In this document: positions 1 to 64,000 of the stretch, piece by piece
How positions within the stretch are numbered: position 1 is the first letter of the stretch
Layout: every line of letters starts with the position of its first letter
Assembly (NCBI GenBank): GCA_014382705.1
Contig: JACNJE010000080.1
Span: 4,000-67,999, forward strand
Reading direction: 5' to 3'
DNA length: 64,000 bases
From: Verrucomicrobiota bacterium
Lineage (GTDB): Bacteria; Verrucomicrobiota; Verrucomicrobiia; Limisphaerales; UBA1096
Notes under the pieces: generated by a model
Told to the model about the DNA's origin: nothing
The model's input: the letters and a program-made list of their open reading frames with translations, nothing else
Database searches by the model: none
Program-made: the position numbers and the translations under genes

Positions 1-2325
1 GAGGGAGACAGCGTCTCGGTGGATGATCCCAAGGACATGGCCGACTCGAGCGGCGACATCAAGAACATCTCAGCCCACGTCGAGGGCGATGACCTGCACC
101 TCTCGATGAGCGTTTACGGCATCGCCGCCCCCTCGGTGGAGGAAACCCCCGAGGGGATGAAGAACCGCTACTACTACCATTGGCTCTTTGACACCGACAA
201 CGACACGGCCACCGGCTTCAAGAACGACGCCTACGAGGGCAACCCGACCGGCTTGGCCAAGCCGCTTGGTGTCGACCTGGTCGTCCAGTTGGGCTGGCGC
301 GACGGCAAGCCCAACGGCGTCTACGCCTACGACCCGGGCGTCGGCGACGACTCCCCGCTGGTATCGGACTACGCCTTCTCCAGAAGCGGCGACACGATCA
401 GCGCGGTGATTCCGTTGGCCGACCTCGGCTTGGCCAAGGGCCAATCCATCGGCTACTCCGCCTTCCAGGAAGGGGCGAGCGACGGCTGGGCGGTCGACTG
501 GGTCGAGTCCGACAGCTTGACGCTCGAGGGAGCTGAGGACGAGGATGGCATTGCGTCGGTGGATGATCCGAAGGACATGGCCGACTCGAGTGGCGACATC
601 AAGCAGATTCAGGCGTTGGTGGAGGATGGAAACCTGTATTTGAGGATGTCTGTTTACGGCATCGCCGCCCCGTCGGTGGAGCAGACGCCCGAGGGGATGA
701 AGAACCGCTATTACTACCATTGGCTCTTCGACACCGACAACGACACGGCCACCGGCTTCAAGAACGACGCCTACGAGGGCAACCCCACCGGCTTGGCCAA
801 GCCGCTTGGTGTGGATCTGGTTGTCCAGTTGGGGTGGCGCGACGGCAAACCCAACGGCGTGTACGCCTACGATCCCGGCGTCGGCGATGACACGCCGCTG
901 GTCAAGGACTACACCTTCGCCGCCGGCGGCGACTCGGTCGAAGCCGTGATCCCCTTGGCCGACCTCGGGCTGGCGCTTGGCCAATCGGTTGGTTTCTCAG
1001 CCTTTCAAGAGGGTGCCAGTGATGGCTGGGCCGTCGACTGGGTCGAGTCCACCGTGGTCACCCTGAGCCAGGACACGAAGGTGGACATGACGCTGGAGAC
1101 GATGTTTGCCGGCAATGCGTTCGGCTTTGAGATTCAGGTCAAGGATGACGGCGACACGAAGGTCGATGCCGCGAGCGTCGCTGTGTCGGTGGACGGCACC
1201 GCCGCAGAGGCATCCGTCACCCAGGCGGACGGCATCACCGTGATCACCGGCCGGAACCCCTCCCTGCTGCCGCAGGAAACCGCCCACACCGTCAGCCTCA
1301 CGCTGGACGCCGGCGGCGCGACACAGTCCAAGGACTTCGTCTTCAACGTGGACGCCTACACGGTGCTGCCAGCCGACAGCCGTGTGGCGGCCATCAAGGA
1401 GGGCGAGAGCAAGCGCGGCCTGATGGTCGGCGTGACCCAGATCAGCTCTGCCTCCACCGGGCAGCAAAGCGTGCACGAAAACATCGCCGAACTGGCCGAG
1501 AAACAGCTCGCCGGCAAAATACTGGATCCGGATTATGAGGACGAGGAGGTGCCTTATCTGAACGAGGCCCACGAGGACGCCGAAGAGGAGTTCGTCGTCG
1601 TCTATGAGGTGGCGGATCTGGTCAACTGGTTTGAACAGGCGCCGGGCGAATCCGGACACTTCCGGGCCGGGCTCGGCTACGAGGACAAGGTCTTTCCCCT
1701 GCTGCCCGGCTGGGGCGGCATGCACGACGGCGTGGTGATCGAGATCAACGCCTGGCTGGAACTCGAGGCCGGTTCCTACAAGATCGGGATGCACAGCGAG
1801 GGCGGCTGGAAGGTCAACGCCGGCTTCGAGCCGGACGGCCCCGTGATCGGCGTTTACGACAACTCAAAGATGCTTCCGGGGGACGACAATATTCTCGGCA
1901 CGGACGATGACGTCCCGCTCAAGCAGGTGCCCACCTATTACGCGCGGGATCAATACGTCAACTTCGTCGCCGAGGAGCCGGGGCTGTACCCGGTTCGCTT
2001 CGTGTGGTTCCAGAGCAGCCACCGCAAGGAGCCCGGCATGACGCTCGAGTTGTACTCGGTCAGGGACCGGGCCAAGCACCTGCTCAACGACACCAGCGAT
2101 CCCAAGGCCATCAAGGCCTGGTACGAGATCGTGGAGGCCGAGTTGAAGGTGCCGGCCATCAGCATCCGCCGCGAGGGCGGCAAGGTGGTGGTCGAGTGGG
2201 TCGGCACCCTCCAGGCAGCGGACAATGTCAACGGCCCATGGAGCGACGTGGCCGATGACAGCAGCAGCCCAATGACACTGACCCCGGACCAGGCTCGGCA
2301 GTTCGGCCGCGCCGTGAGGAAATAA
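1..2325 (+). CDS. Large acidic secreted/surface protein, 5'-partial; two ~170-aa repeats, PA14-like region, C-terminal '[13 protein letters not shown]' tail
   Basis: Frame is open from base 1 ([11 protein letters not shown]...). [14 protein letters not shown]...GWAVDWVES occurs twice. The C-terminal tail resembles those of verrucomicrobial exported proteins. Confidence 0.8.
14..1050 (+). repeat. Intragenic direct duplication, ~500 bp unit, 540 bp period
   Basis: ~14-510 vs ~554-1050; near-identical core, e.g. gaggggatgaagaaccgcta...gacaccgacaacgacacggccaccggcttcaagaacgacgcctacgagggcaac in both. Confidence 0.9.
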
Positions 2326-2408
2326 ACATTTGGGTTATGGTGGTTAATGGGGTGGAGGCGGGCAGCAATGTCCGCCTCTTTTCCCATCCACACAGGCCAT
2401 TTTTAATC

Positions 2409-3212
2409 ATGCGCAGGAACACCGGAAACCACCCGCGACACAGCGCCGGCTTCACCCTGATCGAACTGCTGGTGGTGATCGCCATCATCGCCATCCTGGC
2501 CGCACTGCTCCTCCCGGCCCTCTCCAAGGCCAAGGCCAAGGCGCGCGAGATCACCTGCATCAGCAACTTCAAGCAGTTGCAGCTGTGCTGGCAGATGTAC
2601 ACCGACGACAACGACTACGTCGTCCCCCCCAACCACAACGCCGGCAGCGGCAGCGCATGGATCAGCCTGAGGGGCTCGTGGATCCTCGGCAACGCCAAGC
2701 GCGACATCACGGATTTAAACATTCGAAACGGCATCCTGTTCAAGTACAACGACTCCACCACCATCTACCGCTGCCCGGCCGACCGCGGCAAGGCCGTGTA
2801 TCAGGGACGCGACTATCCCCGGACACGCTCCTGCTCCATCGTTGACAAGATGGGCAAACGCGGCCAAAAGTTCTCGGACATCCGCAACCCCGGGCCGTCC
2901 GGCTCGCTTGTGTTCATGGACGAGGACGCCTACAGCATCAACGACGGCAATATCGGCCTGCGTTACTACCCGCAAACCAAGTGGGGCGACGGCCCGGCCA
3001 AGCGCCACGGCTGGCTGCCGCCCGATCCGGACCGGCAGCCGATGGGGGAGTTTGGCAGCGGCGCAGTCATGAGTTTCGCCGACGGCCGCGCCGAGCGCTG
3101 GGGCTGGCAGTCCCCCCACCCCTTCCTGCGCGGCAAACCCCGCGACGAGGCCATCCCGGACCTGCGCCGCATCCAGCGCCACCTGACCAACCAACCCGCC
3201 CCCCTCCCTTGA
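2409..3212 (+). CDS. Prepilin-type N-terminal cleavage/methylation protein (DUF1559 / H-X9-DG type)
   Basis: [38 protein letters not shown] and C-terminal SFADG; ATG at 2409 preferred. Confidence 0.9.
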
Positions 3213-3219
3213 ACCCCGA

Positions 3220-4407: not shown

Positions 4408-4464
4408 CGCTTGGCCAAGCGGGCGGGCAACCGGCGGTGGTCCTCAAAAGTCGCGCATCATTCG

Positions 4465-15353: not shown

Positions 15354-17357
15354 ATGAGCGGCGCGTTGACAACCTTCGACTCGCCCGGGCTGGAACTGAT
15401 CATCCCAGCCGGTTTGCTGCTGGTCGCGATACTGCCATTCCTTGGCCAGACAACCCGCCTACAGGCCGCCGGACTGGTGGCGCTGCCCCTCGCGCTGGCC
15501 GCAGGGCTGGGGATCTTCAAGTACACCGTGGACGCGCACAACGCCGCCTCGCGCGACAGGCTGCTCTCCTCCGCACCGGTGCAGGCCCGGCTCAGCCCGG
15601 TCACCGATCCGGACAACGCCTACGCCTCGTCTAAAACCTGCCGCGCCTGCCACCCGTCCGAGTACCACAGTTGGCACCACAGCTACCACCGCACGATGAC
15701 GCAGTTGGCCAAGCCGGGGGCGGTCTTGGCCAACTGGGACGGCACCCGGCTTCCGCTTGGCCAAGCGGAGCTGCAGCTCGAAAAAAAGGGGGACGAATAC
15801 TGGGTCACCACGGTCGGTGCCGACGGCATCAAGCAGGAGGTCCAGCGCGTGACCCTCACCACCGGCTCGCACCATCTGCAGGTTTATTGGGTCGCCGACG
15901 CCAAGGGCAACCTGCAGCATCCCTTCCCGTACGGCTGGCTGGTTGCCGATCAAAAATGGGCGCCGGTGTCGGACACCTTCCTGCGCGACCCGAACCTCGC
16001 CCCGCCCGACGCCAAGTGGCACAACGTTTGCATCAAGTGCCACGCGGTCGCCGGACGCCCCGGCGCCGATGCCCACACCGGCACCGTCAACACCGAGATC
16101 GCGGAACTGGGCATCGCCTGCGAAGCCTGCCACGGCCCGGCCGGGGCGCACATTGCCCACTACCAAAATCCCGCCAACCGTTACCGGTCGCGCCTCGGCG
16201 GCGGGGCGGCCCACGGCATCCTCAATCCCGGCAGCGAGACACTCGACCACCGCTTATCGACACAAGCCTGCGGCCAGTGCCACTCGTACCAAAGCCAGAG
16301 TCAGGCGCAAAAAATCGACTGGAACAAAAACGGCCCGCGTTTCCTGCCCGGCCAAAATTTGAAACCCCGCGTCGCCGTCGTTCACGCTAGCAACTTCATC
16401 GCCGACAAAAACCCGGGCACGCCTGCGGAACTCAAGGCGTTCGTCGCCACGCACAAACATCTGCCCCTCGGCAGGGGGGATTTGCTCGATCGTTTCTGGC
16501 CGGACGGCATGGTGCGCGTCACCGGCCGCGAATACAACGGCCTGCTCGACACGCCCTGCTTTCAGCGCGGCAAATTGTCCTGCCTCTCCTGCCACTCGAT
16601 GCACGGCTACCACGACCGCAACGACCAACTCGCGCCCCGCATGGCCACCAACGAGGCGTGCCTCCAGTGCCACGACGGTTTCCGCGACAACCCAGCCGCG
16701 CACACCCACCACGCCGCCGGCTCCACCGGCAGCCTTTGTTACAACTGCCACATGCCGCACACCACCTACGGCCTGCTCGGCGCCATCCGCAGCCACCAGG
16801 TCGACTCGCCCAGCGTCGGGGCGCAGTTGAAAACCGGCCGCCCCAACGCCTGCAACCTCTGCCATCTCGACCAAACCCTCGACTGGACCGGCCGGCACCT
16901 GGCTGAGTGGTACGGCCACCGGCGGCCGACGCTCGACGACGACGGTGAGTCGGTCTCGGCGACGCTCACGATGCTGCTCAAGGGCGACGCCGGCCAGCGC
17001 GCCATCGCCGCCTGGCACATGGGCTGGGAACCGGCCCGCAGAGCCTCCGGCGGCGACTGGCAGGCACCATGGCTGATCCGGGCGATGGACGACCCGTACG
17101 CCGCCGTTCGCCAAATTGCCCACAAGGCGCTGACGGCCGATCCCGCCTTTGCCGGCGCGCCGTTCGACTACACCGCCCCCTTGGCCAAGCGCGCCGACCA
17201 AATCGCCGCCATCCGGCGCCGCTTGGCCAACGCCGGCCCGCTTGGCCAAGCGCCGCGGGCCGAACTTCTGCTCGACGGCCGTGGCCGCCCGCTGGAAGAT
17301 GACGCCGCCCGATTGACCGCCCAACGCAACAACCGCCCGATGACCCTACAGGAATGA
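15354..17357 (+). CDS. Membrane-anchored octaheme c-type cytochrome with C-terminal HEAT-like region
   Basis: Eight CxxCH motifs: CRACH, CIKCH, CEACH, CGQCH, CLSCH, CLQCH, CYNCH, CNLCH; two N-terminal TM segments. Confidence 0.88.
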   Translation: MSGALTTFDSPGLELIIPAGLLLVAILPFLGQTTRLQAAGLVALPLALAAGLGIFKYTVDAHNAASRDRLLSSAPVQARLSPVTDPDNAYASSKTCRACHPSEYHSWHHSYHRTMTQLAKPGAVLANWDGTRLPLGQAELQLEKKGDEYWVTTVGADGIKQEVQRVTLTTGSHHLQVYWVADAKGNLQHPFPYGWLVADQKWAPVSDTFLRDPNLAPPDAKWHNVCIKCHAVAGRPGADAHTGTVNTEIAELGIACEACHGPAGAHIAHYQNPANRYRSRLGGGAAHGILNPGSETLDHRLSTQACGQCHSYQSQSQAQKIDWNKNGPRFLPGQNLKPRVAVVHASNFIADKNPGTPAELKAFVATHKHLPLGRGDLLDRFWPDGMVRVTGREYNGLLDTPCFQRGKLSCLSCHSMHGYHDRNDQLAPRMATNEACLQCHDGFRDNPAAHTHHAAGSTGSLCYNCHMPHTTYGLLGAIRSHQVDSPSVGAQLKTGRPNACNLCHLDQTLDWTGRHLAEWYGHRRPTLDDDGESVSATLTMLLKGDAGQRAIAAWHMGWEPARRASGGDWQAPWLIRAMDDPYAAVRQIAHKALTADPAFAGAPFDYTAPLAKRADQIAAIRRRLANAGPLGQAPRAELLLDGRGRPLEDDAARLTAQRNNRPMTLQE

Positions 17358-22540: not shown

Positions 22541-25500
22541 TGCTGCAATTTCGCTGCACAACCGTCGCCCTGCTAGCGCTTGGCCAAGCGCTGATGGCTC
22601 AACCCGTCGACAGCCGAGACAAGCCAAGCGGAAAAAGGCCGCCTGCCGAAAACCCTGGCCTTGCCCAGTATGCACTGTTTGAAAAAACGGCACCGCGACC
22701 GAAGACGACCTCGCCGGTCGATACCCAGTTGCCGCTAAAGGTCGAACCGGAAATGAGCATAGCTTTCATCGGGAACACATTGCTGGATCGTTCTCAGGAC
22801 TTTGGCTATCTCGAAACTCTGATTCATCAAGCGTTCCCAAACCATCACCTGACCGTACGCAACCTGGCCTGGTCTGCGGACTCACTCCATCATCAGCCGC
22901 GCCCGGCCAATTTTGCCGATACCGACCAGCACTTGGTTTTCGTAAAGGCCGACATCATTTTTGCCGCGTACGGTTTTAACGAATCGTTTGTCGGCTCGGA
23001 TGGCTTGAAGGATTTCAAAACCAAGCTCACCAAGTTTGTACAGGCGGCCAAGGCTCAGGCATTCAACGGCAAGAAAGGACCGCAATTTGTACTGCTCTCA
23101 CCGATCGCCAACGAAAACATCACCGGTGTCGATGCCGCAAAGAACAACAAAAATATCCGACTCTACACCCGCGCCATACGAAACGTGGCCAAAGCGCAAA
23201 AGGTCGGCTTCATCAATGTTTTCGCTGCCACAAAAAAGGCGATGGAGTCTCCCAAGAGCGACCTCACATTCAACGGCTGCCACTTGAACGATGCCGGGTA
23301 TCAACTGTTTGCCAAATCGGTGTTCGACTCCGCATTCGATCAGAAAACGCCAATCGTCAACGAGGAGATTCGCGCGGTTGTGCTCGAGAAAAACAAACAG
23401 TTTTTCCGCCGCTTTCGACCGGTGAACACGTTTTATTACACTGGCGGACGCAACCGCAGCTACGGCTACCTCGACTTTCTGCCAGCGATGCGTAACTTCG
23501 ACATCATGACCGCCAACCGTGACCAGCGCATCTGGGACATCGCCGAGGGCAAACAGGTCCCTGCAAAGATCAACGACTCAAACGTGCCGCCACTTCCATC
23601 GACCAAACAAAGCCGCGGCGCAAACCGCCTCCTTACCCCCGAAAATGAACTTGGTGAGTTTGAGGTCGATCCGCGCTTCGAGGTGAACCTGTTTGCCAGC
23701 GAGACGGATTTCCCTGACCTGGCCTGCCCAATCCAAATGCGCTGGGACGGCCGCGGCCGGCTGTGGGTCAGTTGCTCGACGACTTATCCGCACGTTTATC
23801 CCGGAAACGAGCCGAACGACAAGTTGATCATCCTCGAGGACACCGACGGTGACGGACGGGCCGACACGTCGAGCGTCTTCGCCGACAATTTGCAAATCCC
23901 GTTGTCGTTCGAGTTCGGCAACGGCGGCGTCTACGTCTCGGAAGAACCGCACTTCACATTCCTGAAAGACACCGACGGCGACGGACGGGCGGACACCCGC
24001 GAGAAACTGCTTACCGGTTTCGGCTGTGAAGACTCGCACCACGCGCTGCACGACTTTGCGTGGACACCGGACGGCGACCTGATTTTCCGCGAAGGGATTT
24101 TTCACCACAGCCAAATTGAGACGCCGTACGGCCCGGTGCGGCAGCAGAACAGCGGCTGGTTCCGCTTCGAGCCGAGGCAGCACCGGCTCACCGCGTTTGG
24201 CACCCACCCGAGCACTAATCCGTGGGGCGTGACCTTCGACGACTGGGGCCAGCACATGGCCAGCTTCCCGATTTACGCGCAGGCGTTCCACGCGCTCGAC
24301 CCGGTTTACCCGGCGCAGCACCCGCGCCCAAACGGTTTGCGCGCCTACTCCGGCACGTGCGGCCAGGAGTTCGTCGATTTCCCCAACTGGCCCGAGGAAA
24401 TGCAGGGGGGCTTCGTGAAGGTGCGCTACAAACCAAGCAATCGCGTCGAGTTCCATCGCTGGCATGAGTCCGATTTCGGCTATGACGAAGAATACGTCAG
24501 CAACATTATTTTCTCGCGCAATCTCAGCTTCATTCCGGTCGATCTGCGGTACGGGCCGGACGGCGCGATGTACGTTTGCGACTGGTACAACCCGGTCAAG
24601 GGCCACGCGCAATACTCCCTGCGCGACGAGCGACGCGACCGGGTGAGCGGCCGCATCTTCCGCATCATGCCCAAGGGGGCCAAGCCGCAGCAGATGCCGC
24701 AGATCGCCGGCGCTCCGCTTGGCCAACTGCTCGACCTCCTCAAGCGCCCGGAATACCGCTACCGCTACTGGGCCAAGCGCGAACTGCGCGACCGCGACCC
24801 GGCCGAGGTCAAGGCCGCGCTCGATGCGTGGGTGGCCAAGCTCGACCCGGCCGACCCTCGGCATCGCCATCACCAAATCGAAGCCGTCTGGCTTTACCGC
24901 GGCATCGACGCCACCAATACGCAATTGCTCGGCGAGTTGCTCGACTGCAACGACCCCCACGCCCGCGCCGCGGCGACGCACCAACTGCGCTACTGGCACG
25001 ACCAATTCAACAACGGCCCGGCGCTCCTCCGCAAACGCGCCAACGACCCAAGCGGCCTCGTGCGCATGGAGGCCGCCATCGCCGCGAGCTACGTCGGCAC
25101 ACCCGCCGCGCTCGACGCGCTGCTCGACACGCTCAAGCACCCGAGCATCGGCCACCTCAGCTACGCCATCCGCACCGCGCTTGGCTCGCGGACGATCGAA
25201 CCGCTGTGGAAAGGCAACGTGGACTTCGCCGCCGCGCACCCGGAATTGCCGAAGTTCATGGCCGCCTTCGACCTCCGCCAGAAAATGTCGCCCAAGCGAA
25301 ACACCTCGGCCAAGGACGCTGAGTTTGATTCGCGCAAAAACCTGAAGATCGTGAAAATCTCAGCGGTGAAGGAGCGGATGCTTTTCGACGTCACCCGGTT
25401 TGAGGTGCGGGCCGGACAGCCGGTTCGCATCGACTTCACCAACCCGGACGCCACCGCGCACAACATCGTGATCGTCGCCCCCGGAGCCGAGGAGGAAATT

Positions 25501-32259: not shown

Positions 32260-32344
32260 GCTGTCGCGAGTAATTGCGGCAAACGAAATACCACACAGAG
32301 TGGGTAGAGCCAATACCGGAGGTGGTCTGGCACTTGGCCAAGCG

Positions 32345-35664: not shown

Positions 35665-35687
35665 TATCGTTGCAGCTGCGGCCACCC

Positions 35688-35715
35688 ATACGTCCTATAG
35701 GACTTATACGACCTA
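35688..35715. repeat. 9-bp-period micro-array containing palindrome GTCCTATAGGAC
   Basis: atacgtcct ataggactt atacgacct; overlaps the stop codon at 35713-35715. Confidence 0.5.
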
Positions 35716-39432: not shown

Positions 39433-41492
39433 GTCGTGACAGGTTCGGCCGACCGGCTGCCCTTCGCAGCCAGCACGGTTTCAAGAGTGACAAACAAAAG
39501 CACCGCCGCCAAGGCCCACTGCCAATATTCGAGACGATGCGTCTCCGTTTTTTTGGCCGCCTCGATGACGGCCGGGGCGGCTGCCGGGGCGCTCATCGGC
39601 AGGCCGAGTTTTTTAAATTGATCCATGCGAACCGGCTCGGTGCGGCTCTCCGCCGGCGGGAGGTTCACCGCGAACGTCTCCGACCAGCCACTGCCGTTCG
39701 CGGTGTACAGGCCGGGGGCGGCCGGTGTGAAAATGGTGTCCACCGGGATCACCGTCGACCCGTCACCCGGCGGCAGAACGGTAACGCCGCCACCGGCCTG
39801 GCCGTTGTTGAACTGCGACACGTCCACCTTGCTGCCGACGACGAACTGCCGCGACTGGGTCTTTTCATCCAGCACGGGCCGGAGGATCGAGTAAAGCAAC
39901 GGGATGAACTTGGTCGAGAGCGCCAGTTGGCTGTCGGCCGGTGTCCAGCCGGAGGCCATCAAAAGCAACCGGCCGCGCCGCGCCGCGAGCCAAGCCGGTG
40001 CGCCAGAGTCAAACCGGGCAAGCACGTCGATGCCGTCGTCGGGCAGGTTTTGAAGCTCGCGGTAATTCCAGAAATGCAGATTGGTGAAGTCGCTGTACCG
40101 TGCGTCGCGAAAGACCGCCAACAGCGGGTCGTCGGGCAGCTTGACGTCGAGCAGCGCGAAGTCGCTCGACGTCACGTCGCGGATGACCACACCGTCCGCA
40201 CCCAGCCATTGGCCGAGGTTCGCGGCCTGGCTCGGCGACCGCACGACCATCAGCGCGGTGACACCCCCCTCGATCGCTTGGCCAAGCGCTTGGGCCAGCG
40301 AATCGTCGACGGCATCGCCGATGACGAACAGGTCGGCCTCCGGCAGCGGGCCGCTCGATCGACCGCTGACGGCCTCGACCTGAAAATCAAGACTGCTCGA
40401 CGGCTGAAACGCGTTCGCCAAATAAAACAGCGACCCCTCGGCGTCGTTCGGTTTGTCGTCGCCGACGTACACGATGCGCACGGTCTGCCTCCGGACGGGC
40501 GCGAAATGAAACTGGTTGTCGAACGCCGCCGCGTCGCCCCGGATGGCCAGCCGCTCGACCGGCTTCCCGACCCAGTCGCCCGGCAGCTCAACCACCCGGC
40601 TGCGCCCCGGCGGGACGTGCACCTTTTGGCTGAACGTCTCGCCGGCGGTCGTGTGCGCCAAAAACTCCAGCTCATCGCCGATGCCGCTGGGTGAGTTGCT
40701 GATGCGGAACGACGGCGCGGCCCCGGCGGTGATCCACGGCGCTCCGGAGGCGACCTGCTCGATGCCGGCGTTGCCCTGGTCGTCCTCGGCGATCTGCTCG
40801 AGCGTCACCGTGACGCCCGCAGGCCACTCGTAACCCTGCACCTCATCGAGATGACTGCCGCCCTTCTGCAAGTCACTGACGACGATGATCTCGCGCTTGG
40901 CAAACGGCTGTTCGTCCGCTTCCGACTGGGTCTCCTGGATCGCCTCACCGACGGAAACAAGCGCTTGGCCAAGGTTGCTGCCGCCGAAGCCCGGCTTGGC
41001 CAAGCGCTCGAGCCGGTCGTTCACCTCCGCCTCCGACGCGCTGCCAACCCACGACTTGACCTCGGCCAACGACGCCGTCGCGTCGTCGAAGGCGATCAGC
41101 GAGAACTGGTCACCGGGGCCGAGCCGGCCAAGCGCGCTTTGCACCTTGGCCTTGGCCCGCGCCCACAGGTCGCCGCGCTGCATGCTGGCACTGCGGTCAA
41201 GCAGCACGGTGACCCACTGCCGGTCGCGCCGCGCCGCGTCGGCGGGATTGTCCACCGCGACGAACGGCCGCGCAAAAACGAACGCCAGCAGCAGCAGCGC
41301 GAGGCAGCGCAACAGCAACAGCAGCAGGTGCGTCGGCCGCCGCTTGCGGTCAACCGGAGGGCTGGTCTTATCGAGGAACATCAGGCTGCCGAACGGCTGC
41401 TTGTTCTTCGGCCGGTCGTGCAGCAGGTGCAGGATGATTGGGATGGCGAGGCCAAGCGCCCCCAGCAGGTAAAGCGGCGTCAGGAAGCTCAT
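39429..41492 (-). CDS. BatA N-terminal / vWA domain protein
   Basis: MSFLTPLYLLG...PIILHLL...FGSLMFL...LLLLLRC...FARP; MIDAS DRSASM. Confidence 0.88.
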   Translation of the reverse strand: MSFLTPLYLLGALGLAIPIILHLLHDRPKNKQPFGSLMFLDKTSPPVDRKRRPTHLLLLLLRCLALLLLAFVFARPFVAVDNPADAARRDRQWVTVLLDRSASMQRGDLWARAKAKVQSALGRLGPGDQFSLIAFDDATASLAEVKSWVGSASEAEVNDRLERLAKPGFGGSNLGQALVSVGEAIQETQSEADEQPFAKREIIVVSDLQKGGSHLDEVQGYEWPAGVTVTLEQIAEDDQGNAGIEQVASGAPWITAGAAPSFRISNSPSGIGDELEFLAHTTAGETFSQKVHVPPGRSRVVELPGDWVGKPVERLAIRGDAAAFDNQFHFAPVRRQTVRIVYVGDDKPNDAEGSLFYLANAFQPSSSLDFQVEAVSGRSSGPLPEADLFVIGDAVDDSLAQALGQAIEGGVTALMVVRSPSQAANLGQWLGADGVVIRDVTSSDFALLDVKLPDDPLLAVFRDARYSDFTNLHFWNYRELQNLPDDGIDVLARFDSGAPAWLAARRGRLLLMASGWTPADSQLALSTKFIPLLYSILRPVLDEKTQSRQFVVGSKVDVSQFNNGQAGGGVTVLPPGDGSTVIPVDTIFTPAAPGLYTANGSGWSETFAVNLPPAESRTEPVRMDQFKKLGLPMSAPAAAPAVIEAAKKTETHRLEYWQWALAAVLLFVTLETVLAAKGSRSAEPVTT

Positions 41493-42432: not shown

Positions 42433-42436
<4 letters not shown>
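41489..42436 (-). CDS. DUF58 domain protein
   Basis: GLHRSPRTGFSTEFTEYRQYSPGDD, DWKV, KKFEDETN, DFSRSM, VSDF; GTG start overlaps moxR stop. Confidence 0.92.
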
Positions 42437-43437
<1,001 letters not shown>

Positions 43438-43438
43438 T

Positions 43439-44275
43439 TTAGTGAGTCATTGCGTAAAAAATAATGTTGATGCCCATCGGGTACGCCTTGGGCTCGGAGA
43501 ATTCCTTGAAATACCATTCGCCGGCGCGGCTCTCCTCCTCCCATCCGTCCCCGAGGTCGGTGTTGTGGCAGATGATCGTCATCAGCCGGCCATCGTCGTC
43601 GTACACCCCGCGATAATGCGGGGTCTCCGCGTCGTGCCGCTCCCAGGTGATGCCGTACGGCGCACCGCGGATCGCGTCGCCGGGGTTGGGCACCTGCGGC
43701 TTTTCCTTGAGCGGAAACACGCACTGGAACACCTCGTGCCCCAGCGGCAGCTCGACGATCTCCCGCGACGGGAACACCCGCTTGAACTCCCGCTCGAAAT
43801 TCCGCCATTCGGCCTCGCCCCAAAAGTCGTCCACCATCAGGAAGCCGCCGGTGAGCAGATATTTCCGCAGCGCCTTGACCTCATCGTCACTCAGGCTCAT
43901 CTCGCCCGGCTCGATGAGGTAGATGAACGGGTATTGAAACAGCTTGGCCTCGGTGAGGTTGAGCACCGTGCCATCGGGATCGACCTTGAGCGCGGTGAGC
44001 TGCTGCAGGCGAAACGACATGTTGAGGTCGCTCTCGGGATAGTCGATCGACCACTTGCCGCGCCCCCGCCAGCCGCCGCCCCACGAGTCGTACTGGATGC
44101 GGGCGAAGGTGAACGTGTCGTGCGGCATTTCCCCGTCGCGCTCCCAGTCCTCGACACCGGCGCGATCAGCGCGAGACCAACTGTGCTGGCTCCACGCCAC
44201 GAACGTGGCCAACGTCAGCGTGGCCAAAACCAGACCAAGGCCAAGCCGGCGGGACGGATGACGCAGACGGTTCAT
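43439..44275 (-). CDS. DUF4159 domain protein
   Basis: FTFARIQY, WSIDYP, YPFIY, LRKYLLTGGFLMVDDFWG, NTDLGDGWE, MGINIIFYAMTH. Confidence 0.9.
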   Translation of the reverse strand: MNRLRHPSRRLGLGLVLATLTLATFVAWSQHSWSRADRAGVEDWERDGEMPHDTFTFARIQYDSWGGGWRGRGKWSIDYPESDLNMSFRLQQLTALKVDPDGTVLNLTEAKLFQYPFIYLIEPGEMSLSDDEVKALRKYLLTGGFLMVDDFWGEAEWRNFEREFKRVFPSREIVELPLGHEVFQCVFPLKEKPQVPNPGDAIRGAPYGITWERHDAETPHYRGVYDDDGRLMTIICHNTDLGDGWEEESRAGEWYFKEFSEPKAYPMGINIIFYAMTH

Positions 44276-46857
44276 TGCGCCTTGGCCTCCTCGGCGGGGG
44301 GCTTGGGCTTGGCCAAGCGGGTGAGCAGTTTTTGCGCGGCGCGAAATCGTGGCGCGTCCTCGAGCGCCTGCAACACATGGCGCTTGGCCTCGGCCGGCGA
44401 CCGGTCGGCCAGCGCGGTGGCCAGGCGGAAATGCAGATCCACCGGGTCGGCCGGATCGAGCAGCAACAGCCGCTTGAGCGGCCGGAGGGTCGCCTCCGTG
44501 TTGCCGGTTTGCTGCGCGGTCAACGCCATGTAACGGTGGCCGATGGGCGAAAGCGGGTTGGCCGAAAAGAAGCGCTTAGCCAAGCGATCGACCGCCGGCC
44601 AGTTTTCGCGCTCGGCGTGGATTTCCATCAGCCGCCCGTACAGCTTGGTCGCCGCGTCCTCGATGGCGGCCCATTGCTCGAGCACGGCCAGTTCCTCCTC
44701 CGGTTGGCCAAGCTCGCGGTGTGCGCGGGCGAGCATGCCGTACGGCGAGCCGCCGCCGCGCTGCCTCGGGTGCAGCCGGATCGAGCGCTCGAGCAGCGGG
44801 ATCGCCTCGAGGTAGTTCTCCTCCTCGACGAGGTTGGCGCAGGTGGTGTTGAGCGCCCAGATGTTGTCCGGGTTGGCCTCGAGCCAATCGACGATGGCGT
44901 TCTTGTCGAGCGGGTTGACCTCGAGCGGCGTCGGCTTGGCCAAGTCCGCCTCCGGGGCGAACGCCTTGGCCAAGCCGGTGGCAAACGCGGTGAACCCCTC
45001 CTCGAGCTTGGCCAACGGGGCAGCGTGCTGCTCGATGGCGATGTTGATGAACACGCCCTGGCCAAGGTCGTGCAGAATGTTGCTGATGCACGCCTCGCCA
45101 AAATGCTCCACAAGATACTCGACCACGAGCGACGACTGGTAGTAGGCGAACTGCATGTGCTCGGGGCTCTTCGGCACGAGGAACGCCATGCTGAGCCGCT
45201 CGAGCGGGGTCATCTCGCCATTGAGGATGAAATCGCGGTATTCGGGCGTCATTTGCTCGCCCCACGAGCTGTGCCGCAGCCGCTCCTCGTAGACCGAGAT
45301 GCCCTCGCTGAACCAGCGCGGCATCTTGTTGCGCGTCTTTTGCAGCGTGATCACGTGGCAATACTCGTGCCACAGCAGCGACTGCCAGTTTTGCTGGAAG
45401 CCAACGAGCGACTTCGGGCTGTTGGCCGTGATCAGTTTGCCGAAGCAGATGCCCATGTAGCCGTCGCCGCCCGGGATGCCGAACGTCCGCACGGCGAAAT
45501 CTTTTTTCTCCGGGAAAATCTCGACGATCACCGGGCCTTCGATTTGCGTGTCGTATTTTGCCGAGAACAGCTCACGCGCCTCGGTCAGCAGGTCGATCGC
45601 CTCGTCGCCGTACAGCGCGGACTCGTCGCGGGTCATCCGCAGCAGAAAGCCGTTGCGGTCGATGGTCACGTATTTTTTCAGCGAGTCGTGCAGCGTGAGC
45701 AGGTTGAACGTCGTCACGTCGTAGCCGTCGGCCTCGTGCGCCTCCCCGGCCAGCCTCCATCCCTCCTCATCCTCGCCCAGCCGCAGCAGATCCTGCGCGA
45801 GCTGCGTCTTGGCCGGAATGTAATCGTTGCTGAACTTGAGCGCCTGCCGCTGATGCGCCGCGCCCTCGGCGAACAGGTATTTCGACGACAGTTTTTTGCC
45901 GATCTCATGATCGACCAGCGGGTTGGTCTTCCAATATTTCAAGCCGTTGGCCCGCGCCGCCTCGGCCTTGGACGGTTCGTTGCGGACCGTGTGGAGCGCG
46001 GCCTGCAGCGCCCAACTCGCAGCATGGTGCGGGTTGACCTTGAAGATCGCCTTGAGGATGCCGTTGGCTGCGTCGTACTGCTCGGCGTCAGCCTGGTTGT
46101 GCGCCTGCAACAGCAGCGACGGGACGTGATCCGGGTTGGCGAACATCGCCGTGTGCAGCGGTTCCCCCATCTGCGACGGGTCGCTCTCGGCGTACGCCTT
46201 GGCCAGCCCATGCAGCAGGTCGGCGTCCTCGGGGTAATGCCCGATCGCCCGCGTGAACGTCCGCCCGGCCAGCTTGAAGTCGCGCTTGGCCAAGGCCAGT
46301 TCACCCACCGCCAGCAACGCCTCGCGGTTGTCCGGGTCGGACTTGAGCACACGGTCGTACAGGTTTTCCTTCACCTGCTTCGGGTCGTACGCTTTGGTCT
46401 TGAGCGCTGCCCGGCCAAGGAAGACGATCGTGTTCTCGTCACTCAAGGTGCGCCGGCCGTTGATGAACTGCAGGATGACCTGCAGCATCTGGGTGGCCTG
46501 CGCGGCGTCGCCGTTGGCCTCGTAGGCGAGATGAAACAGCCAGAGCGCCTCAGCGTTGTAGCGATACCGGTAATCGTCGAGCAGTTCCGTGGCAAACCGC
46601 GCCGCCTCGGGATATTGCCCGGTGGCCAGCCGCGCCCGAAGCAGCAGCAGCCGCCAGCCGCTGTCATATTCCTTGGCGGCGATGGCCTCCCCGCTGGCCT
46701 TGATCGCCTGGTCGTACTCGCCGATGGCGAAAAACTCGCGCGCCTCCTTGAGCGTCGCCGCCCGTGCTTGGCCAAGCGCCAGGCAGGCCAAGGCCAGCAG
46801 CATGCAATACGGAAAAAAACGAGGCATCAAACCCACCGCCCTCATCATACCGTCCAA
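44272..46857 (-). CDS. TPR-repeat protein with peptidase MA-like (HExxH) domain
   Basis: Signal peptide, TPR helices, LWHEYCHV...PRWFSEG, AYYQS. Exact start uncertain. Confidence 0.85.
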   Translation of the reverse strand: MDGMMRAVGLMPRFFPYCMLLALACLALGQARAATLKEAREFFAIGEYDQAIKASGEAIAAKEYDSGWRLLLLRARLATGQYPEAARFATELLDDYRYRYNAEALWLFHLAYEANGDAAQATQMLQVILQFINGRRTLSDENTIVFLGRAALKTKAYDPKQVKENLYDRVLKSDPDNREALLAVGELALAKRDFKLAGRTFTRAIGHYPEDADLLHGLAKAYAESDPSQMGEPLHTAMFANPDHVPSLLLQAHNQADAEQYDAANGILKAIFKVNPHHAASWALQAALHTVRNEPSKAEAARANGLKYWKTNPLVDHEIGKKLSSKYLFAEGAAHQRQALKFSNDYIPAKTQLAQDLLRLGEDEEGWRLAGEAHEADGYDVTTFNLLTLHDSLKKYVTIDRNGFLLRMTRDESALYGDEAIDLLTEARELFSAKYDTQIEGPVIVEIFPEKKDFAVRTFGIPGGDGYMGICFGKLITANSPKSLVGFQQNWQSLLWHEYCHVITLQKTRNKMPRWFSEGISVYEERLRHSSWGEQMTPEYRDFILNGEMTPLERLSMAFLVPKSPEHMQFAYYQSSLVVEYLVEHFGEACISNILHDLGQGVFINIAIEQHAAPLAKLEEGFTAFATGLAKAFAPEADLAKPTPLEVNPLDKNAIVDWLEANPDNIWALNTTCANLVEEENYLEAIPLLERSIRLHPRQRGGGSPYGMLARAHRELGQPEEELAVLEQWAAIEDAATKLYGRLMEIHAERENWPAVDRLAKRFFSANPLSPIGHRYMALTAQQTGNTEATLRPLKRLLLLDPADPVDLHFRLATALADRSPAEAKRHVLQALEDAPRFRAAQKLLTRLAKPKPPAEEAKAQ

Positions 46858-48147: not shown

Positions 48148-48228
48148 GCGCCGCTTGGCCAAGCGGCATCGGGGAGTCCCCTCCAAAAAAACTTGCTTCA
48201 ACGACGGCCAAGCGCGGACAGTCGGCGC

Positions 48229-59117: not shown

Positions 59118-61877
59118 ATGAATTACCCGTTTCTCTCAACCGACCGTTCGACCGGCTGGCTTAAACCATTCGGCGGCACAGCATTAGCGCTGCTCATCGT
59201 CACGTTGTTTTTATTTTGGGACAGCCTCGATCCGGCGCTGATTCTGTTCTCGAACGACGGCCCGCTTGGCTCGATCAGCACCGACGCGATCGAGATGCCC
59301 GGCACGTTTTCCGGCTACTGGCACGACCTGAATTGGCTCGGCTACGAGCAGCCCAGCGCCTCGCCCGGCATTTACATGGCGCTTGGCCTGTTGCTGCAAA
59401 AATCAGTGCTGTACCTCAAATGGTGCACGCCGATCTGCCTGGTTATCCTTGGGCTGTCCGCCTGGTTTTTCTTTCGCACTCTCGGCTTCCGAAATCTCGC
59501 CTGCACGGTTGGCGCCGTTGCGGCCGCGTTCAACATGGAGGTCGTCTCGTATGCCTGCTGGGGGCTGCCGTCTCGGGCGCTCACGTTTGCCACCACGTTT
59601 CTCGCCGCGGCGTTCGTCCTGCGCGCGCTCAAGTCGCGGCCGTGGGCGAACCTCGCGCTGGCCGGCATCTGCATCGGGCTTGGCCTGATGGAAGGTTACG
59701 ACATCGGCGCGCTGTTCAGCCTTTACATTGCGGCGTTCGTGCTGTTCGGGTTCGTTATCAAGTCGATACCGCTTGGGCGAGCGGCGGGGCGAGGGTTCGC
59801 CGGGATCGCGGTGGTGGCAATTGTTGCCGGCTTGGCCGCCTCGCAAACGCTGTCCACCCTCGTCGGCACCCAACTCCAAGGCGCAAGCAGTGGCGAACCT
59901 GACGTCCTGCAACCCCCCGCGCAACGTGCCGCGGCGAAGGAGCGGCAATGGACATTCCTCACGCAGTGGAGCCTGCCGAAAATGGAGACGCTGCGCATCG
60001 TGATTCCCGGCCTTTACGGCTACCGACTCGACACACCGCGACCGCACGACCGAAACAAATTTCGCTCGCTTGACGGCGGTAATTATTGGGGCTCGATGGG
60101 ACAGGATCCGGTGCTCGACCGTATCGCCGAGATCGATGAGGTTATCGCCACGCTTGGGCAGAAAAACCCCGTCCCCGGTGAATTGGCCATGGCGATGAAC
60201 ATCCCCGTCCCGGAGGCGGCCCGGCTGCTTAGCCTGAGACAAAACAGACACCAGCTTCAGCAACGCCACTCCGGCTCGGGCGAATACGCCGGGATTGTCG
60301 TCGTGTTGCTCGCTGCTTGGGCACTGTTTTTTACGCTGCAAAAACGGGCAACCCTTTACTCGCCGACCGAGCAGCGGATGATTCTGTTTTGGGCCACACT
60401 GGCGTTGGTGTCGCTGCTTTTGGCCTACGGCCGGCATGCGCTGTTTTACCAACTCATCCATCAACTGCCGTTTTTCAACACGATGCGCAACCCGATTAAG
60501 TTCCTGCACCCCATGCACTTCGGGCTGGTCGTTCTTTGCGGCTACGGCGTTGAGGGGATGCTGCGCTTGGCCAAGCGCGAGGCGGGAGGGACGCGTTCCA
60601 TCTCGTCCCATGTTACGCAGCTGTGGATGCGCGGCTCGGGCATCGTTGCCGGGTTGATGCTGCTCGGCGCGCTGATTTTTGGGGCGTCAAAAAAATCGCT
60701 CGGCCAACACATCGAGTCGCTTGGCTTCGAACGCGCCACCGCGCAGGTGATGGCCGGCTTCAGCGCGATGGAAGTCATCCTGTCCGCGCTGCTGCTCGGA
60801 GCGGGCGTGTTTCTCATCGCAAAAGTGATGCGCGGCGGCGCGGCGGCCAAATGGGCGGTGGCGCTTGGCCTGCTGGTCGTCATCGACCTCACCCGCGCCA
60901 ACTCGCCGTGGGTGCAGTACGACAATTACAAGTACAAGTACGAAGGTAACAACCCGATCATCAGCGCCCTGGCCAAGTCGCCGCACGAGGGGCGCGTTAC
61001 GATCTCTCCCCTGCCCTCTGGACTGCTCAACCAACTTTATCGCATCGAGTGGCTACAGCATCAGTTTCTGTACAACAACATCCAGTCGCTCGACCTTGTG
61101 CAGATGCCGCGCATGGCCGCCGACCATGAATCGTTCGAACGGCGTTTCACGATTACTGGCGACACGAATACGCATTATCTCGCCGGGCGACGTTGGCAAC
61201 TCACCAATACACGCTGGCTGCTCGGCGGCACAAACGACGTCGTGTTTTTCAATCAGCAGTTCGATCCCGGCCATGCTCGCTTCTCGGTGGTCACGAACTT
61301 TGCCGTCGGACTCCGGCCCGGCACAAAAAACCCGAACGCGCCAGGCACGGAGGATTTCACGACGCAATTTCACCCGGCCGCCCCGTATAGCCTGATACGG
61401 TTCGACGGCGCGCTGCCTCGAGCCAAGCTGTACAGTAATTGGCAGGTGCAGCCGAGTGACACGGCCGCGCTCGAGACCTTGGCCAAGCGGGAGTTTGACC
61501 CGCACGCTTCGGTCATCGTCAACTCGCCAATCGAGCCGTCCGCCGCCTCGCTTGGCCAAGCGGCGGGCAGCGTGAGCATCACCGACTATTCGCCAAAGGA
61601 AATCCGGCTCGCCGCCCAAGCCACCGCCGAGTCGGTGCTGCTGCTAAACGACCATTGGTCGGCGCATTGGCGCGCCACGGTCGATGGCCAACCGGCGGAG
61701 TTGCTTCGCTGCAATTACGTGATGCGCGGTGTGCGGCTTTCGCCCGGCAGCCACGAGGTGGTGTTTCGTTTTCAGCCGCCATTGACTTGGCTTTACGTGA
61801 GCTTGGCCTCGCTGCTCGGCGGCTTCGGGCTGCTTGGTTTTGTCATCGTGGACGAGCGAAAAAAACCATCGACATAA
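59118..61877 (+). CDS. YfhO-family polytopic membrane protein (GT-C-like)
   Basis: Many TM helices; C-terminal LLLNDHWS..W.ATVDG...NYVMRGV..G.HEVVFRF. Confidence 0.82.
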   Translation: MNYPFLSTDRSTGWLKPFGGTALALLIVTLFLFWDSLDPALILFSNDGPLGSISTDAIEMPGTFSGYWHDLNWLGYEQPSASPGIYMALGLLLQKSVLYLKWCTPICLVILGLSAWFFFRTLGFRNLACTVGAVAAAFNMEVVSYACWGLPSRALTFATTFLAAAFVLRALKSRPWANLALAGICIGLGLMEGYDIGALFSLYIAAFVLFGFVIKSIPLGRAAGRGFAGIAVVAIVAGLAASQTLSTLVGTQLQGASSGEPDVLQPPAQRAAAKERQWTFLTQWSLPKMETLRIVIPGLYGYRLDTPRPHDRNKFRSLDGGNYWGSMGQDPVLDRIAEIDEVIATLGQKNPVPGELAMAMNIPVPEAARLLSLRQNRHQLQQRHSGSGEYAGIVVVLLAAWALFFTLQKRATLYSPTEQRMILFWATLALVSLLLAYGRHALFYQLIHQLPFFNTMRNPIKFLHPMHFGLVVLCGYGVEGMLRLAKREAGGTRSISSHVTQLWMRGSGIVAGLMLLGALIFGASKKSLGQHIESLGFERATAQVMAGFSAMEVILSALLLGAGVFLIAKVMRGGAAAKWAVALGLLVVIDLTRANSPWVQYDNYKYKYEGNNPIISALAKSPHEGRVTISPLPSGLLNQLYRIEWLQHQFLYNNIQSLDLVQMPRMAADHESFERRFTITGDTNTHYLAGRRWQLTNTRWLLGGTNDVVFFNQQFDPGHARFSVVTNFAVGLRPGTKNPNAPGTEDFTTQFHPAAPYSLIRFDGALPRAKLYSNWQVQPSDTAALETLAKREFDPHASVIVNSPIEPSAASLGQAAGSVSITDYSPKEIRLAAQATAESVLLLNDHWSAHWRATVDGQPAELLRCNYVMRGVRLSPGSHEVVFRFQPPLTWLYVSLASLLGGFGLLGFVIVDERKKPST

Positions 61878-62644: not shown

Positions 62645-62730
62645 ACCGCGTGCACCAAGGTGAAGCCGCAAACCGGGGCTGCGATTGCCATTGACAAAAC
62701 CGAAAGGCCAAGATCACCCTCCATCCAGAA

Positions 62731-63246
62731 ATGACAATCCAACAGGCAGTCGCCCTTGCCGCCCTTTTGATGGTGGGCTGCAGCAAACCGCAACCCGCCC
62801 CGGAGGAGAACGCGGCCAAGCCTGTTCCCGAAAACAGCACCCGCCCGGAACCCAAGCCGAAACCCGCTAACTCCCCCGCCGCAGCGACACCGCCCGGTCC
62901 GCCACTAAAAAACACGGCATCCAAGCCGAACCCGCCTAAGATTTCGATCTGGGACGCTGCCAGAAAGGGCGACGGAGAGGCCATCCAGCAGCACTTAGCC
63001 AGCGGCACGGATCTCAACGCGAAAGATGAAGGCGGATGGGTGCCGTTGCACGCCGCATCCGGCTCCGGCCATAAGGAGATCGTGAAACTGCTCCTGACCA
63101 GCGGCGCGGACGCAAACCACCCGGCACTCAGTGGAAAAACGGCCCTCGACTACGCCTCAAGGGCTGGACACAAGGAAACTGCCGACCTCCTTCGAAAACA
63201 CGGTGGAAAGACGCGCGCGGAATTGAACGCTGAAGGGAAGAATTGA
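62731..63246 (+). CDS. Ankyrin-repeat lipoprotein
   Basis: Lipobox MVGC, Pro-rich linker, [29 protein letters not shown]. Confidence 0.88.
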
Positions 63247-63491
63247 AATTGAGGCCAAACGCGGGATTTACGCTGATCGAACTGCTGGTGGTGATTGCCA
63301 TCATCGCCATCCTGGCGGCGCTGCTGCTGCCGGCTCTCGCAAAGGCGCAATACACCGGCAAACGAGCGGTCTGCATCAACAACATCAAGCAGCAGCACCT
63401 GTCGCAAATCATGTACAGCGGCGACAACGGCGGGCGATTCCCGAAACGCGCCAGGGGTGCCCATGGGGGAAGCACAACTGACTACTATTGA
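63243..63491 (+). pseudogene. Truncated prepilin-type (DUF1559-like) gene
   Basis: [39 protein letters not shown], then stop at 82 aa; no room for the usual C-terminal domain. Confidence 0.65.
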
Positions 63492-63566
63492 GTTGCATTT
63501 TGTCAACATTTGGCGACAAAACACGCGCAAGGAATTCTTGGCCAAAAAACAAAGTTAACTTTCTTT

Positions 63567-64000
63567 ATGGCTTCACTTGAAAAATTGAACATGGCTTTGC
63601 TTGGCCTTGGACGGGCTGGGAAGTTTCACATCCAGAGCATCCAGTCGATACCGGGGATCAACCTGCGATGTGTTGTGGACGTGGACGAATCCCTGGCCAA
63701 GCGCTTGGCCAAGGATCTGGAGTGCGACTACTCGACCTCTGCCGAAGGGCCGCTTGGCCAAGCGGACGTTGATGCGGTGATTGTTGCGTCACCGACGCAT
63801 GCGCATTATGGGCAAATCCAAGCCGCGCTCGAGGCCGGCAAGCCGGTCTTCACCGAGAAACCGCTTGGCAGCAGCCTCAAGGAAATCGATACCTGCTTCG
63901 GCTTGGCCAAGCGCAGCGGGTTGCCGCTGTTCGTCGGCTTCAACCGCCGGTTCGACCCGTCCTTCTCCAGCCTCGCCCGAGGCGTGAAGGAGGGACAGGT
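63567..64000 (+). CDS. Gfo/Idh/MocA oxidoreductase (myo-inositol 2-dehydrogenase-like), 3'-partial
   Basis: Not in the ORF track; my translation: MASLEKLNMALLGLGRAG...DAVIVASPTHAH...GKPVFTEKP...LFVGFNRRFDP. Confidence 0.9.
   Translation, partial: MASLEKLNMALLGLGRAGKFHIQSIQSIPGINLRCVVDVDESLAKRLAKDLECDYSTSAEGPLGQADVDAVIVASPTHAHYGQIQAALEAGKPVFTEKPLGSSLKEIDTCFGLAKRSGLPLFVGFNRRFDPSFSSLARGVKEGQ

Follow-up and report, generated by a model that had tools for sequence, protein, structure and literature searches.

A genus-wide iterated palindrome as a putative DNA uptake sequence in uncultured marine Verrucomicrobiota

A highly iterated palindrome found in one genus of uncultured marine bacteria is, judging from comparison of genomes, probably the DNA uptake sequence of that genus: a palindromic tag, independent of methylation and read cooperatively on relaxed extracellular DNA. 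New here are the confinement of the motif to the genus, its loss together with competence genes, the lack of a cognate methyltransferase among the three families searched and the phasing of neighbouring copies at 10.4 bp. The initial annotation of this DNA had named uptake sequences as a distant analogue only; comparative evidence makes uptake the best explanation.

The window (the whole stretch of 64,000 nucleotides analysed) contains 60 exact copies of the 10-mer CTTGGCCAAG versus 0.10 expected from 100 dinucleotide shuffles; 30 copies of the 12-mer GCTTGGCCAAGC and 21 of the 14-mer CGCTTGGCCAAGCG were counted, as well as 43 10-mers with a single mismatch. The initial annotation had given about 60, 30 and 21 exact copies, an expectation of about 0.1, many single-mismatch copies and three perfect 18-bp versions; the recount agreed exactly, and all three perfect versions are present. 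Its housekeeping host genes ptsI, a Mur ligase, cca and moaE were borne out by Pfam, and its view that no flanking element is shared fits the end of flank conservation at ∼8 bp from the centre. The features of the window, none with an assigned strand, are as follows.

252..63911: 60 exact copies of the 10-mer CTTGGCCAAG (30 reach the 12-mer, 21 reach the 14-mer CGCTTGGCCAAGCG), starting at 252, 429, 792, 3276, 4410, 5689, 8277, 8342, 11079, 11969, 12069, 13684, 15756, 17180, 17241, 20015, 20217, 20257, 22579, 25761, 27460, 27514, 27703, 28952, 30603, 30695, 32333, 33161, 33284, 36321, 37551, 37585, 39294, 40277, 40964, 40995, 44308, 44935, 44965, 46285, 46767, 48154, 49268, 49478, 49933, 51022, 51092, 53031, 53727, 54428, 55340, 57483, 57596, 58652, 60566, 61478, 61551, 63704, 63753 and 63902
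252..438: in-phase pair, spacing 177 bp (17.0 turns)
15752..15769: perfect 18-bp palindrome enclosing one copy, within a multiheme cytochrome gene
22575..22592: perfect 18-bp palindrome enclosing one copy
32333..32342: copy right behind the stop of a minus-strand ORF ending at 32345
40964..41004: in-phase pair, spacing 31 bp (3.0 turns at 10.42 bp)
48150..48167: perfect 18-bp palindrome starting 3 bases past the stop codon at 48147, an example of the pile-up behind stops
61478..61560: in-phase pair, spacing 73 bp (7.0 turns)

The genome that includes the window (G000; 4.02 Mb, 61% GC, 181 contigs, the longest of 139 kb; no 16S rRNA was found in the assembly) carries 3286 10-mers (818 per Mb), 1844 12-mers and 1172 14-mers. 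Enrichment confined to a single contig, a possibility raised in the initial annotation, is not what we found, as 180 of the 181 contigs carry the motif. The excess also holds when measured against the codon-aware null that had been proposed there: called genes contain 2392 10-mers versus 114 ± 10 in 10 synonymous-codon shuffles (21-fold) and 676 14-mers versus 12. This excess, together with phasing across frames, across gene boundaries and outside genes (see below), rules out a codon or peptide artefact. An assembly artefact is ruled out as well, since the motif abounds in 20 further species-level genomes and is crossed intact by independent contigs: those from two other studies (runs X7 and X9) span copies without letter differences (among the variant rows listed, 40 of 2170).

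Beyond the genus the motif is practically missing: 400 genomes from elsewhere in the class have 0–9 12-mers apiece. Within the genus set of 26 genomes (21 of them in motif-rich clades) the 10-mer density is 373–923 per Mb in 19 genomes and 12–291 per Mb in seven. Each of 80 viral loci has at most three 10-mers. No replacement motif was detected in 424 kb of an AT-rich clade of the genus; the original 10-mer still ranks first among words there (10 versus 0.85). Our literature search for the motif or a comparable system in Verrucomicrobia found nothing relevant.

Motif density follows the competence genes. At least one of comEC, dprA, comM and comF is held by all 19 genomes with 373 or more 10-mers per Mb and by none of the seven at lower density; the seven lowest densities belong to exactly the seven genomes without competence genes. 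Among the 19 motif-rich genomes comEC was found in 14, dprA in 14, comM in 13 and comF in 14 (55 of 76 gene slots filled versus 58.6 expected from completeness). Deletions between intact neighbours were seen for comEC (G001, G004, G008, G024, G010 and G041), dprA (G006, G008, G010 and G041), comF (all five AT-rich genomes and G041) and comM (G004, G008 and G041). Because the comF and comM loci of G021 and G010 are missing from the assemblies, little can be read from the absence of these genes there. The losses fall in three separate lineages (G010, G041 and the AT-rich clade) on both trees; the protein tree was built by FastTree, with G024 excluded for lack of data. Against the uptake reading, there are only these three independent losses, and G041 and the AT-rich clade also have low-GC drift and long branches.

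Synonymous change in ancestral sites, relative to matched codons, was 67/163.5 = 0.41 in 11 genomes that retain competence genes and 111/123.4 = 0.90 in G041 and the AT-rich clade; the ratio of amino-acid to synonymous change was not raised in the losers (0.29–0.36 versus 0.35–0.50). Evolution of the motif in G041 and the AT-rich clade is now neutral, and it persists there as peptide fossils. In the AT-rich clade LGQA is 7.5-fold and LAKR 5.3-fold in excess (Neisseria baseline 0.25 and 1.0), and 7 of the 19 coding 10-mers lie exactly at G000 sites. Less favourable to this reading, the density in G010 (291 per Mb) is only ∼25% below that of its competence-positive sisters G002 (383) and G017 (390), and its motif is still conserved (ratio 0.52). 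G016 is an exception: all four genes are intact, yet the motif decays (0.86), with more core mismatches per exact copy than in G010 (0.47 versus 0.40); G021 and G017 are intermediate (0.64 and 0.59). Decay where competence genes were lost points to a ‘self’ tag for taking up the DNA of relatives.

The palindrome is conserved at synonymous positions, gained by substitution in permissive protein regions and depleted in foreign genes. Copies are found at 0.17 per kb in low-GC3 genes versus 0.77, and at 0.80 per kb in the 238 genes shared with the AT-rich clade. Amino acids flanking the sites are less conserved (identity 0.65 versus 0.76), and the encoded peptides are inflated in G000, 4.5-fold for the tripeptide and 25-fold for the tetrapeptide (LGQA 25-fold). 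The core of the palindrome is invariant, the flanking positions are graded with deviations concentrated at the word ends, and the two arms have no covariation beyond the consensus, which rules out a hairpin or template-switch origin of the palindrome's perfection. Weak copies next to strong ones stay in phase with the helix, and isolated sites are stronger. Invariant core, non-covarying arms and weak copies phased with strong ones support a genome-wide code for a two-fold symmetric protein, in line with the target of a dimeric DNA-binding or DNA-modifying protein suggested by the initial annotation.

Copies up to 250 bp apart are phased at 10.41–10.44 bp (95% interval 10.34–10.52; 10.41 in pooled relatives) with Z of 51–121 and amplitude of 0.51–0.55, and close copies attract each other at short range; at 0.25–1.4 kb they are under-dispersed. 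Phasing persists when the two copies lie in different frames (Z 17 and 60), when a gene boundary separates them (14 and 29) and when they are outside genes (12 and 20); none was seen for 14 control hexamers (Z ≤ 2 at 10.45). The masked AA/TT background of the genome has a period of 11.18–11.33 (11.05–11.41), while outside genes the A/T period is unstable at 10.1–10.3 (CI 9.75–13). Reported periods are 11.1–11.6 for looping in vivo and about 10.5 for free DNA (PMC1762422). A period of about 10.4 bp could also be imposed by a protein straightening or wrapping the DNA of the chromosome.

The proposed uptake mechanism would run as follows. A receptor with two-fold symmetry, located outside the cytoplasm, would bind the 14-bp site on free double-stranded DNA. 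Binding would be cooperative between two or more such receptors sharing a surface or scaffold, provided that their sites lie within ∼250 bp and on the same side of the helix. Fragments tagged with the motif would preferentially be handed to ComEC, ComF, DprA and ComM and then recombined. Because tagged fragments would be recombined preferentially, the word would be driven into every permissive position until most fragments of 1.5–2 kb hold a cluster; no methylation step is required. In G000, 81.5% of 2-kb fragments carry the motif and copy clusters are spaced at 1550 bp.

A less likely account is that the copies are bound by an oligomeric protein that organises the chromosome or acts as a transcription roadblock; lost transformation would remove recombination and weaken selection on such weakly selected sites, which would decay as a side effect. 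Xu et al. interpret HIP1 as sites of this type (PMC5861425). DNA-bridging proteins typically show palindromic sites, cooperativity and phasing on one face, and the account agrees with the even distribution of copies (variance/mean 0.57–0.71 in windows of 2–10 kb), with their 8-fold pile-up behind stop codons, with the occupation of 83 of 156 short convergent gene gaps and with decay forming a continuum that includes G016, G021 and G017. However, the period is 10.4 and not the 11.2–11.3 of the genome's A/T signal; evolution in G041 and the AT-rich clade is neutral, not partly relaxed, under unchanged protein constraint; the lowest densities coincide with missing competence genes; and a motif on nearly every contig has no domain bias.

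Transformation could also use the motif after uptake, as a Chi-like or homology-search site that assists pairing between the incoming strand and the chromosome. Two roles have been proposed for HIP1, and one of them is of this kind (bioRxiv 2024.09.10.611283). Such a role accounts equally well for co-loss with comEC, dprA, comM and comF, and a palindrome is present whichever strand enters. It is nevertheless improbable, as incoming single-stranded DNA has no helical phase, a period nearer 11 bp would be expected on the resident chromosome, the hairpin of the 14-mer is weak (−3.5 kcal/mol as RNA) and the arms do not covary.

The initial annotation had also offered a methylation- or repair-driven drive around a GGCC/TGGCCA core, as in Elhai's model of HIP; this, or a phosphorothioate-type mark, we regard as very improbable. 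The clustering of deviations at word ends resembles HIP1 (PMC4390886), but helical phasing, stronger isolated sites and competence co-loss are not predicted by a mutational process. Methyltransferases of the C5, N4/N6 and D12 classes occur in just two, one and one of the 26 genomes, all in motif-poor G008 except for one C5 enzyme on the motif-free end of a short G000 contig. A search of the 21 genomes of motif-rich clades for a cognate enzyme with three Pfam families gave PF00145 in one genome and PF01555 and PF02086 in none, and a crude motif scan of G000 turned up no candidate DNA amino-methyltransferase. The sole C5 methyltransferase of G000 (contig C53) was rejected as cognate enzyme, being absent from every other motif-rich genome. 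A methyltransferase-like match on contig C166, within a microcompartment operon, resembles acetate kinase on inspection.

Least credible is an origin as a terminator, or as the trace of a mobile element or REP/MITE-like repeat: the pile-up behind stops and the 39 exact copies located 12 bp apart, which can fold (−13 kcal/mol), would suit it, but flanks are not shared, 76% of copies are in coding DNA in all three frames, about 2 T per 10 bases and no T-run follow post-stop copies, and ungapped orthologous positions (8 gaps in 1082) with no sign of insertion largely refute a repeat.

The closest known systems to the putative uptake sequence are the DUS of Neisseriaceae (GCCGTCTGAA, receptor ComP) and the USS of Pasteurellaceae (PMC2397512, PMC2817400, PMC3868556, PMC7811141, PMC1626085). 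Like them, the palindrome occurs about once per kb, is lineage-specific, has a conserved core with tolerant edges, occupies permissive positions of core genes, is rare in acquired genes, inflates encoded peptides and crowds behind stops; like USS in H. ducreyi, it weakens with loss of competence genes. The spacing of clusters is similar to that of DUS (about 1500 bp). The differences are that DUS and USS are asymmetric words, often in inverted pairs forming terminators, that their peptide excess is about 2-fold, and that the present motif, a perfect palindrome with a putative role in uptake, belongs to another phylum. Phasing and short-range attraction are absent from 1164 Neisseria DUS (Z ≤ 2.2, amplitude 0.15–0.17); for uptake sequences, a close second copy brings no gain (PMC7811141).

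Another comparison is offered by HIP1 (GCGATCGC) and the alternate HIPs of cyanobacteria (PMC4390886, PMC5861425, PMC13756078 and bioRxiv 2024.09.10.611283). HIP1 is likewise a genome-wide palindrome, selected inside genes, with edge-biased deviations; its abundance follows competence and pilus genes, and an uptake tag was proposed for it. In contrast, our motif has 10–14 bp and is limited to one genus, it tracks comEC, dprA, comM and comF with pilus ATPases retained, and its phasing is at one helical turn versus a periodicity of 18–94 kb (in an assembly whose contigs reach at most 139 kb). HIPs come with a cognate orphan methyltransferase, not found here in the three families searched, and their benefit for transformation depends on methylation.

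The matS/MatP, parS/ParB, Noc and SlmA sites are palindromes of 12–16 bp read by dimers, with tens of copies tied to or excluded from a chromosome domain. The present motif is far more frequent, under-dispersed and dispensable in three lineages.

Evenly balanced is the broader claim that sequence-selective DNA uptake arose here independently for a third time, and for the first time in the PVC superphylum, on a different principle: a palindromic unmethylated tag would be read by several receptors cooperating along the same side of relaxed extracellular DNA, and the geometry of the uptake complex (10.4-bp phase, ∼250-bp reach, ∼1.5-kb fragment) would be written into the genome. The established cases of sequence-selective uptake are two proteobacterial families, both host-associated; if true, the claim would add a free-living ocean lineage whose members select the DNA of kin so strongly that their own proteins are rewritten. 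The data bear on the spread and decay of uptake sequences and on the purpose of highly iterated palindromes, with replicated competence loss and no methyltransferase. Two cheap genomic tests for iterated motifs emerge, co-loss with the four competence genes and a helical period of 10.4 versus 11.2; if the claim holds, further iterated palindromes of uncultured bacteria that still lack an explanation could be recast as uptake tags by the same test.

In the search for a receptor, no ComEA-like gene was found; HHH_3 matches are GspK-like and present also in motif-poor genomes. Two pilin operons are retained in non-competent lineages, one on contig C67 (retained in G010) and one with six pilins on contig C15 (retained in AT-rich loci L599 and L600). 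PilB/PilT/GspE ATPases are retained in non-competent lineages as well. A deletion screen took in G041 over ∼0.4 Mb, G010 over ∼0.3 Mb and the AT-rich clade over ∼0.4 Mb. The C15 operon has a member of 1446 aa whose look-alikes are all hypothetical; one cluster of them (score 0.87) has HHH_3 in 29% of members, which we note as a lead only.

The motif is genuine, genome-wide, specific to the genus and selected for. The initial annotation had counted by hand about 60 copies of the 10-mer core CTTGGCCAAG, about 30 of the 12-mer and about 21 of the 14-mer; an exact search of the window returned 60 (0.10 expected), 30 and 21, together with all three reported 18-bp perfect palindromes and 43 single-mismatch copies of the 10-mer. 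Its proposal of genome-wide occurrence was borne out: the source genome (G000, 4.02 Mb, 90.7% complete) contains 3,286 10-mers, 1,844 12-mers and 1,172 14-mers, and the motif is present on 180 of 181 contigs. In 400 further genomes of the class the 12-mer count is 0–9 per genome, and across 16 more families of the same order it is 0–3. Members of the G000 Ffh and DprA clusters are labeled Verrucomicrobiales or Verrucomicrobiota bacterium, and for each of the 19 holder runs with a labeled organism the source is a marine or seawater metagenome.

Genes of G000 were called with a custom hexamer model (2,768 genes plus 244 added atypical ORFs), so their limits are approximate. Density is 0.69/kb in coding versus 2.03/kb in non-coding DNA for the 10-mer, and 0.20/kb versus 1.18/kb for the 14-mer. 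Against a synonymous shuffle, the kind of codon-aware null asked for in the initial annotation, the coding motif is 21-fold in excess. Coding copies use all reading frames (LAK 1,417, LGQ 881, WP 94) and favor weakly conserved protein stretches; the motif has altered protein sequences, with LGQA inflated 25-fold, LAKR 21-fold and AWPS 15-fold. Copies originate by substitution (8 of 1,082 aligned sites are gapped). Low-GC3 genes are depleted of the motif 4- to 5-fold, and several of the longest motif-free stretches are occupied by giant surface-protein or integrase genes. Copies pile up 5–20 bases behind stop codons (17/kb versus ∼2/kb); no T-run follows these post-stop copies. Among 14-mers with one mismatch, the deviation falls on the two outer positions in 577 and 317 copies but on the two central ones in 12–13, and the putative reader would be strict at the center and lax at the edges. 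The two arms show no covariation beyond consensus, which argues against an origin by hairpin or template switching.

Spacing in G000 shows three scales. Copies 15–250 bp apart attract (1.3–1.6-fold), copies 250–1,400 bp apart repel (0.57–0.85-fold, inside long genes too), and clusters lie on average 1,550 bp apart with under-dispersed copy counts. Neighboring copies lie on one helix face, with amplitude 0.89 at 15–60 bp, 0.60 at 60–120 bp, 0.42 at 120–200 bp, 0.23 at 200–300 bp and none beyond. Phasing persists when two copies use different reading frames, when they span a gene boundary and when they lie outside genes; none was seen in 14 control hexamers, and, as a further control, 1,164 DUS in 82 Neisseria loci had neither phasing nor attraction, except between terminator pairs. 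One-mismatch copies beside exact ones are 3.5-fold enriched in phase and 0.46-fold out of phase, and isolated copies outside genes are stronger (73% full 14-mers versus 49%), a pattern that would be expected of cooperative binding. The period is 10.41–10.44 (bootstrap 10.34–10.52) in G000 and 10.41 in eight pooled relatives. Looping in cells has a period of 11.08–11.6 and free DNA ∼10.5, according to PMC1762422 and PMC10642903. The motif period suggests a reader acting on relaxed DNA, and is suggestive rather than proof because the AA/TT background period (11.18–11.33, motif masked) is an unstable estimate outside genes. The sequence CCAAGCGCTTGG, formed where two motifs stand 12 bp apart, occurs 370 times in G000; 10-bp spacing is possible yet seen once, and together these suggest a footprint of ∼12 bp.

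Across 26 genus genomes the 10-mer density ranges from 923 down to 12 per Mb. All 19 genomes with at least 373/Mb carry at least one of comEC, dprA, comM and comF (14, 14, 13 and 14 genomes, respectively; 55 matches versus 58.6 expected from completeness), and none of the four was found in the seven genomes at or below 291/Mb. The absence is deletion, beyond mere incompleteness, since flanking neighbors are joined where the gene is expected (comEC in six genomes, dprA in four, comF in six, comM in three). The losers form three lineages: five AT-rich genomes (40–43% GC, 12–23/Mb), G041 (133/Mb) and G010 (291/Mb). The latter two stand apart among competence-positive genomes on both ffh and eight-protein trees, which differ in the sister of G041; related genomes not being independent, the evidence amounts to three events. 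The AT-rich clade formerly carried the motif: its peptides are still enriched (LGQA 7.5-fold, LAKR 5.3-fold) and 7 of its 19 coding copies coincide with G000 copies. At ancestral sites, 11 competence-positive genomes show 0.41 of the expected synonymous change, versus 0.90 for G041 and the AT-rich clade taken together; in the latter group amino-acid change per synonymous change is not raised. GC content spans 40–63% within the genus and is lower in two of the three losing lineages, perhaps because GC-biased gene conversion was lost there.

We consider it probable that the motif is an uptake signal that is palindromic, works without methylation and is recognized cooperatively on free DNA. Several observations count against uptake: G016 has four intact competence genes, yet its motif decays (synonymous change 0.86 of expectation); decay is intermediate in G021 and G017; and G010, whose density is just a quarter lower than that of its sisters, still conserves the motif (0.52). 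These cases would agree with uptake if G010 had lost competence recently and if G016 either transformed rarely or had lost its receptor. The GC shift in G041 and the AT-rich clade confounds the competence comparison, and no receptor was found: a ComEA-like gene did not turn up, and two pilin operons and the pilus ATPases are retained in non-competent lineages. In Haemophilus and Neisseria a close second copy does not raise uptake (PMC7811141), and cooperative uptake had no precedent in the literature consulted. The next-ranked reading, sites of a chromosomal protein that decay after recombination is lost, is rather unlikely.

The known sites matS, parS, Noc and SlmA were brought in for comparison. 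DUS/USS are closest in working, judging from PMC2397512, PMC2817400, PMC1626085 and PMC3868556; however, the motif lacks their asymmetry and indifference to neighboring copies, and with these two features failing and its uptake role putative it is not classed with them. HIP1 is similar in look, but the three methyltransferase families searched across the genus gave the motif no cognate enzyme; HIP1 was lately linked to competence (PMC13756078, bioRxiv 2024.09.10.611283 and PMC5861425). A co-occurring DNA methyltransferase, sought on the suggestion of the initial annotation, did not emerge: PF00145 matched 2, PF01555 1 and PF02086 1 of the 26 genomes, all but one match belonging to motif-poor G008. 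Since HIPs bring a cognate methyltransferase (PMC4390886), scarce here in the three families, the motif is no HIP in that sense. The exception, a C5 enzyme on a short contig (G000:C53:358-1899, L086), is the only one in motif-rich genomes and has an apparent N-terminal helix-turn-helix. With 24 of 26 genomes matching none of these three main families, the lineage is unusually methylase-poor. Searches of openly accessible articles found no description of the motif or of a Verrucomicrobia uptake sequence; k-mer surveys in subscription papers or supplements may list it. PMC12378983 gave general background only.

One operon of the window was matched across the genus:
33325-46857, MoxR-vWA-BatA-type operon with DUF58, DUF4159 and TPR peptidase

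Elsewhere in G000, an operon at C15:16183-29345 (L598) has six pilin-like genes (250, 262, 278, 289, 337 and 1,446 aa) followed by a large subtilase gene and weakly resembles the Verru_Chthon cassette; its order is kept in the AT-rich clade and, at ∼33% identity, in distant relatives. Its 1,446-aa PilX-like protein had no Pfam or NCBIfam match. A second, divergent DprA-family gene lies directly behind a DEAD/RecQ-like helicase gene (C11:9793-12860, L085); neither contains the motif, and the pair is probably an acquired island. Also nearly motif-free are two giant ORFs, likely surface proteins (C3:1-25470, 8,489 aa; C77:14372-24112, 3,246 aa), and a bacterial microcompartment operon (C166:497-6841, partly L626) with shell proteins, aldehyde dehydrogenase, aldolase and, by inspection, acetate kinase. 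In genome G024, a repeat at loci L047-L050 would encode tandem AKKAV units, resembling a histone H1-type protein.
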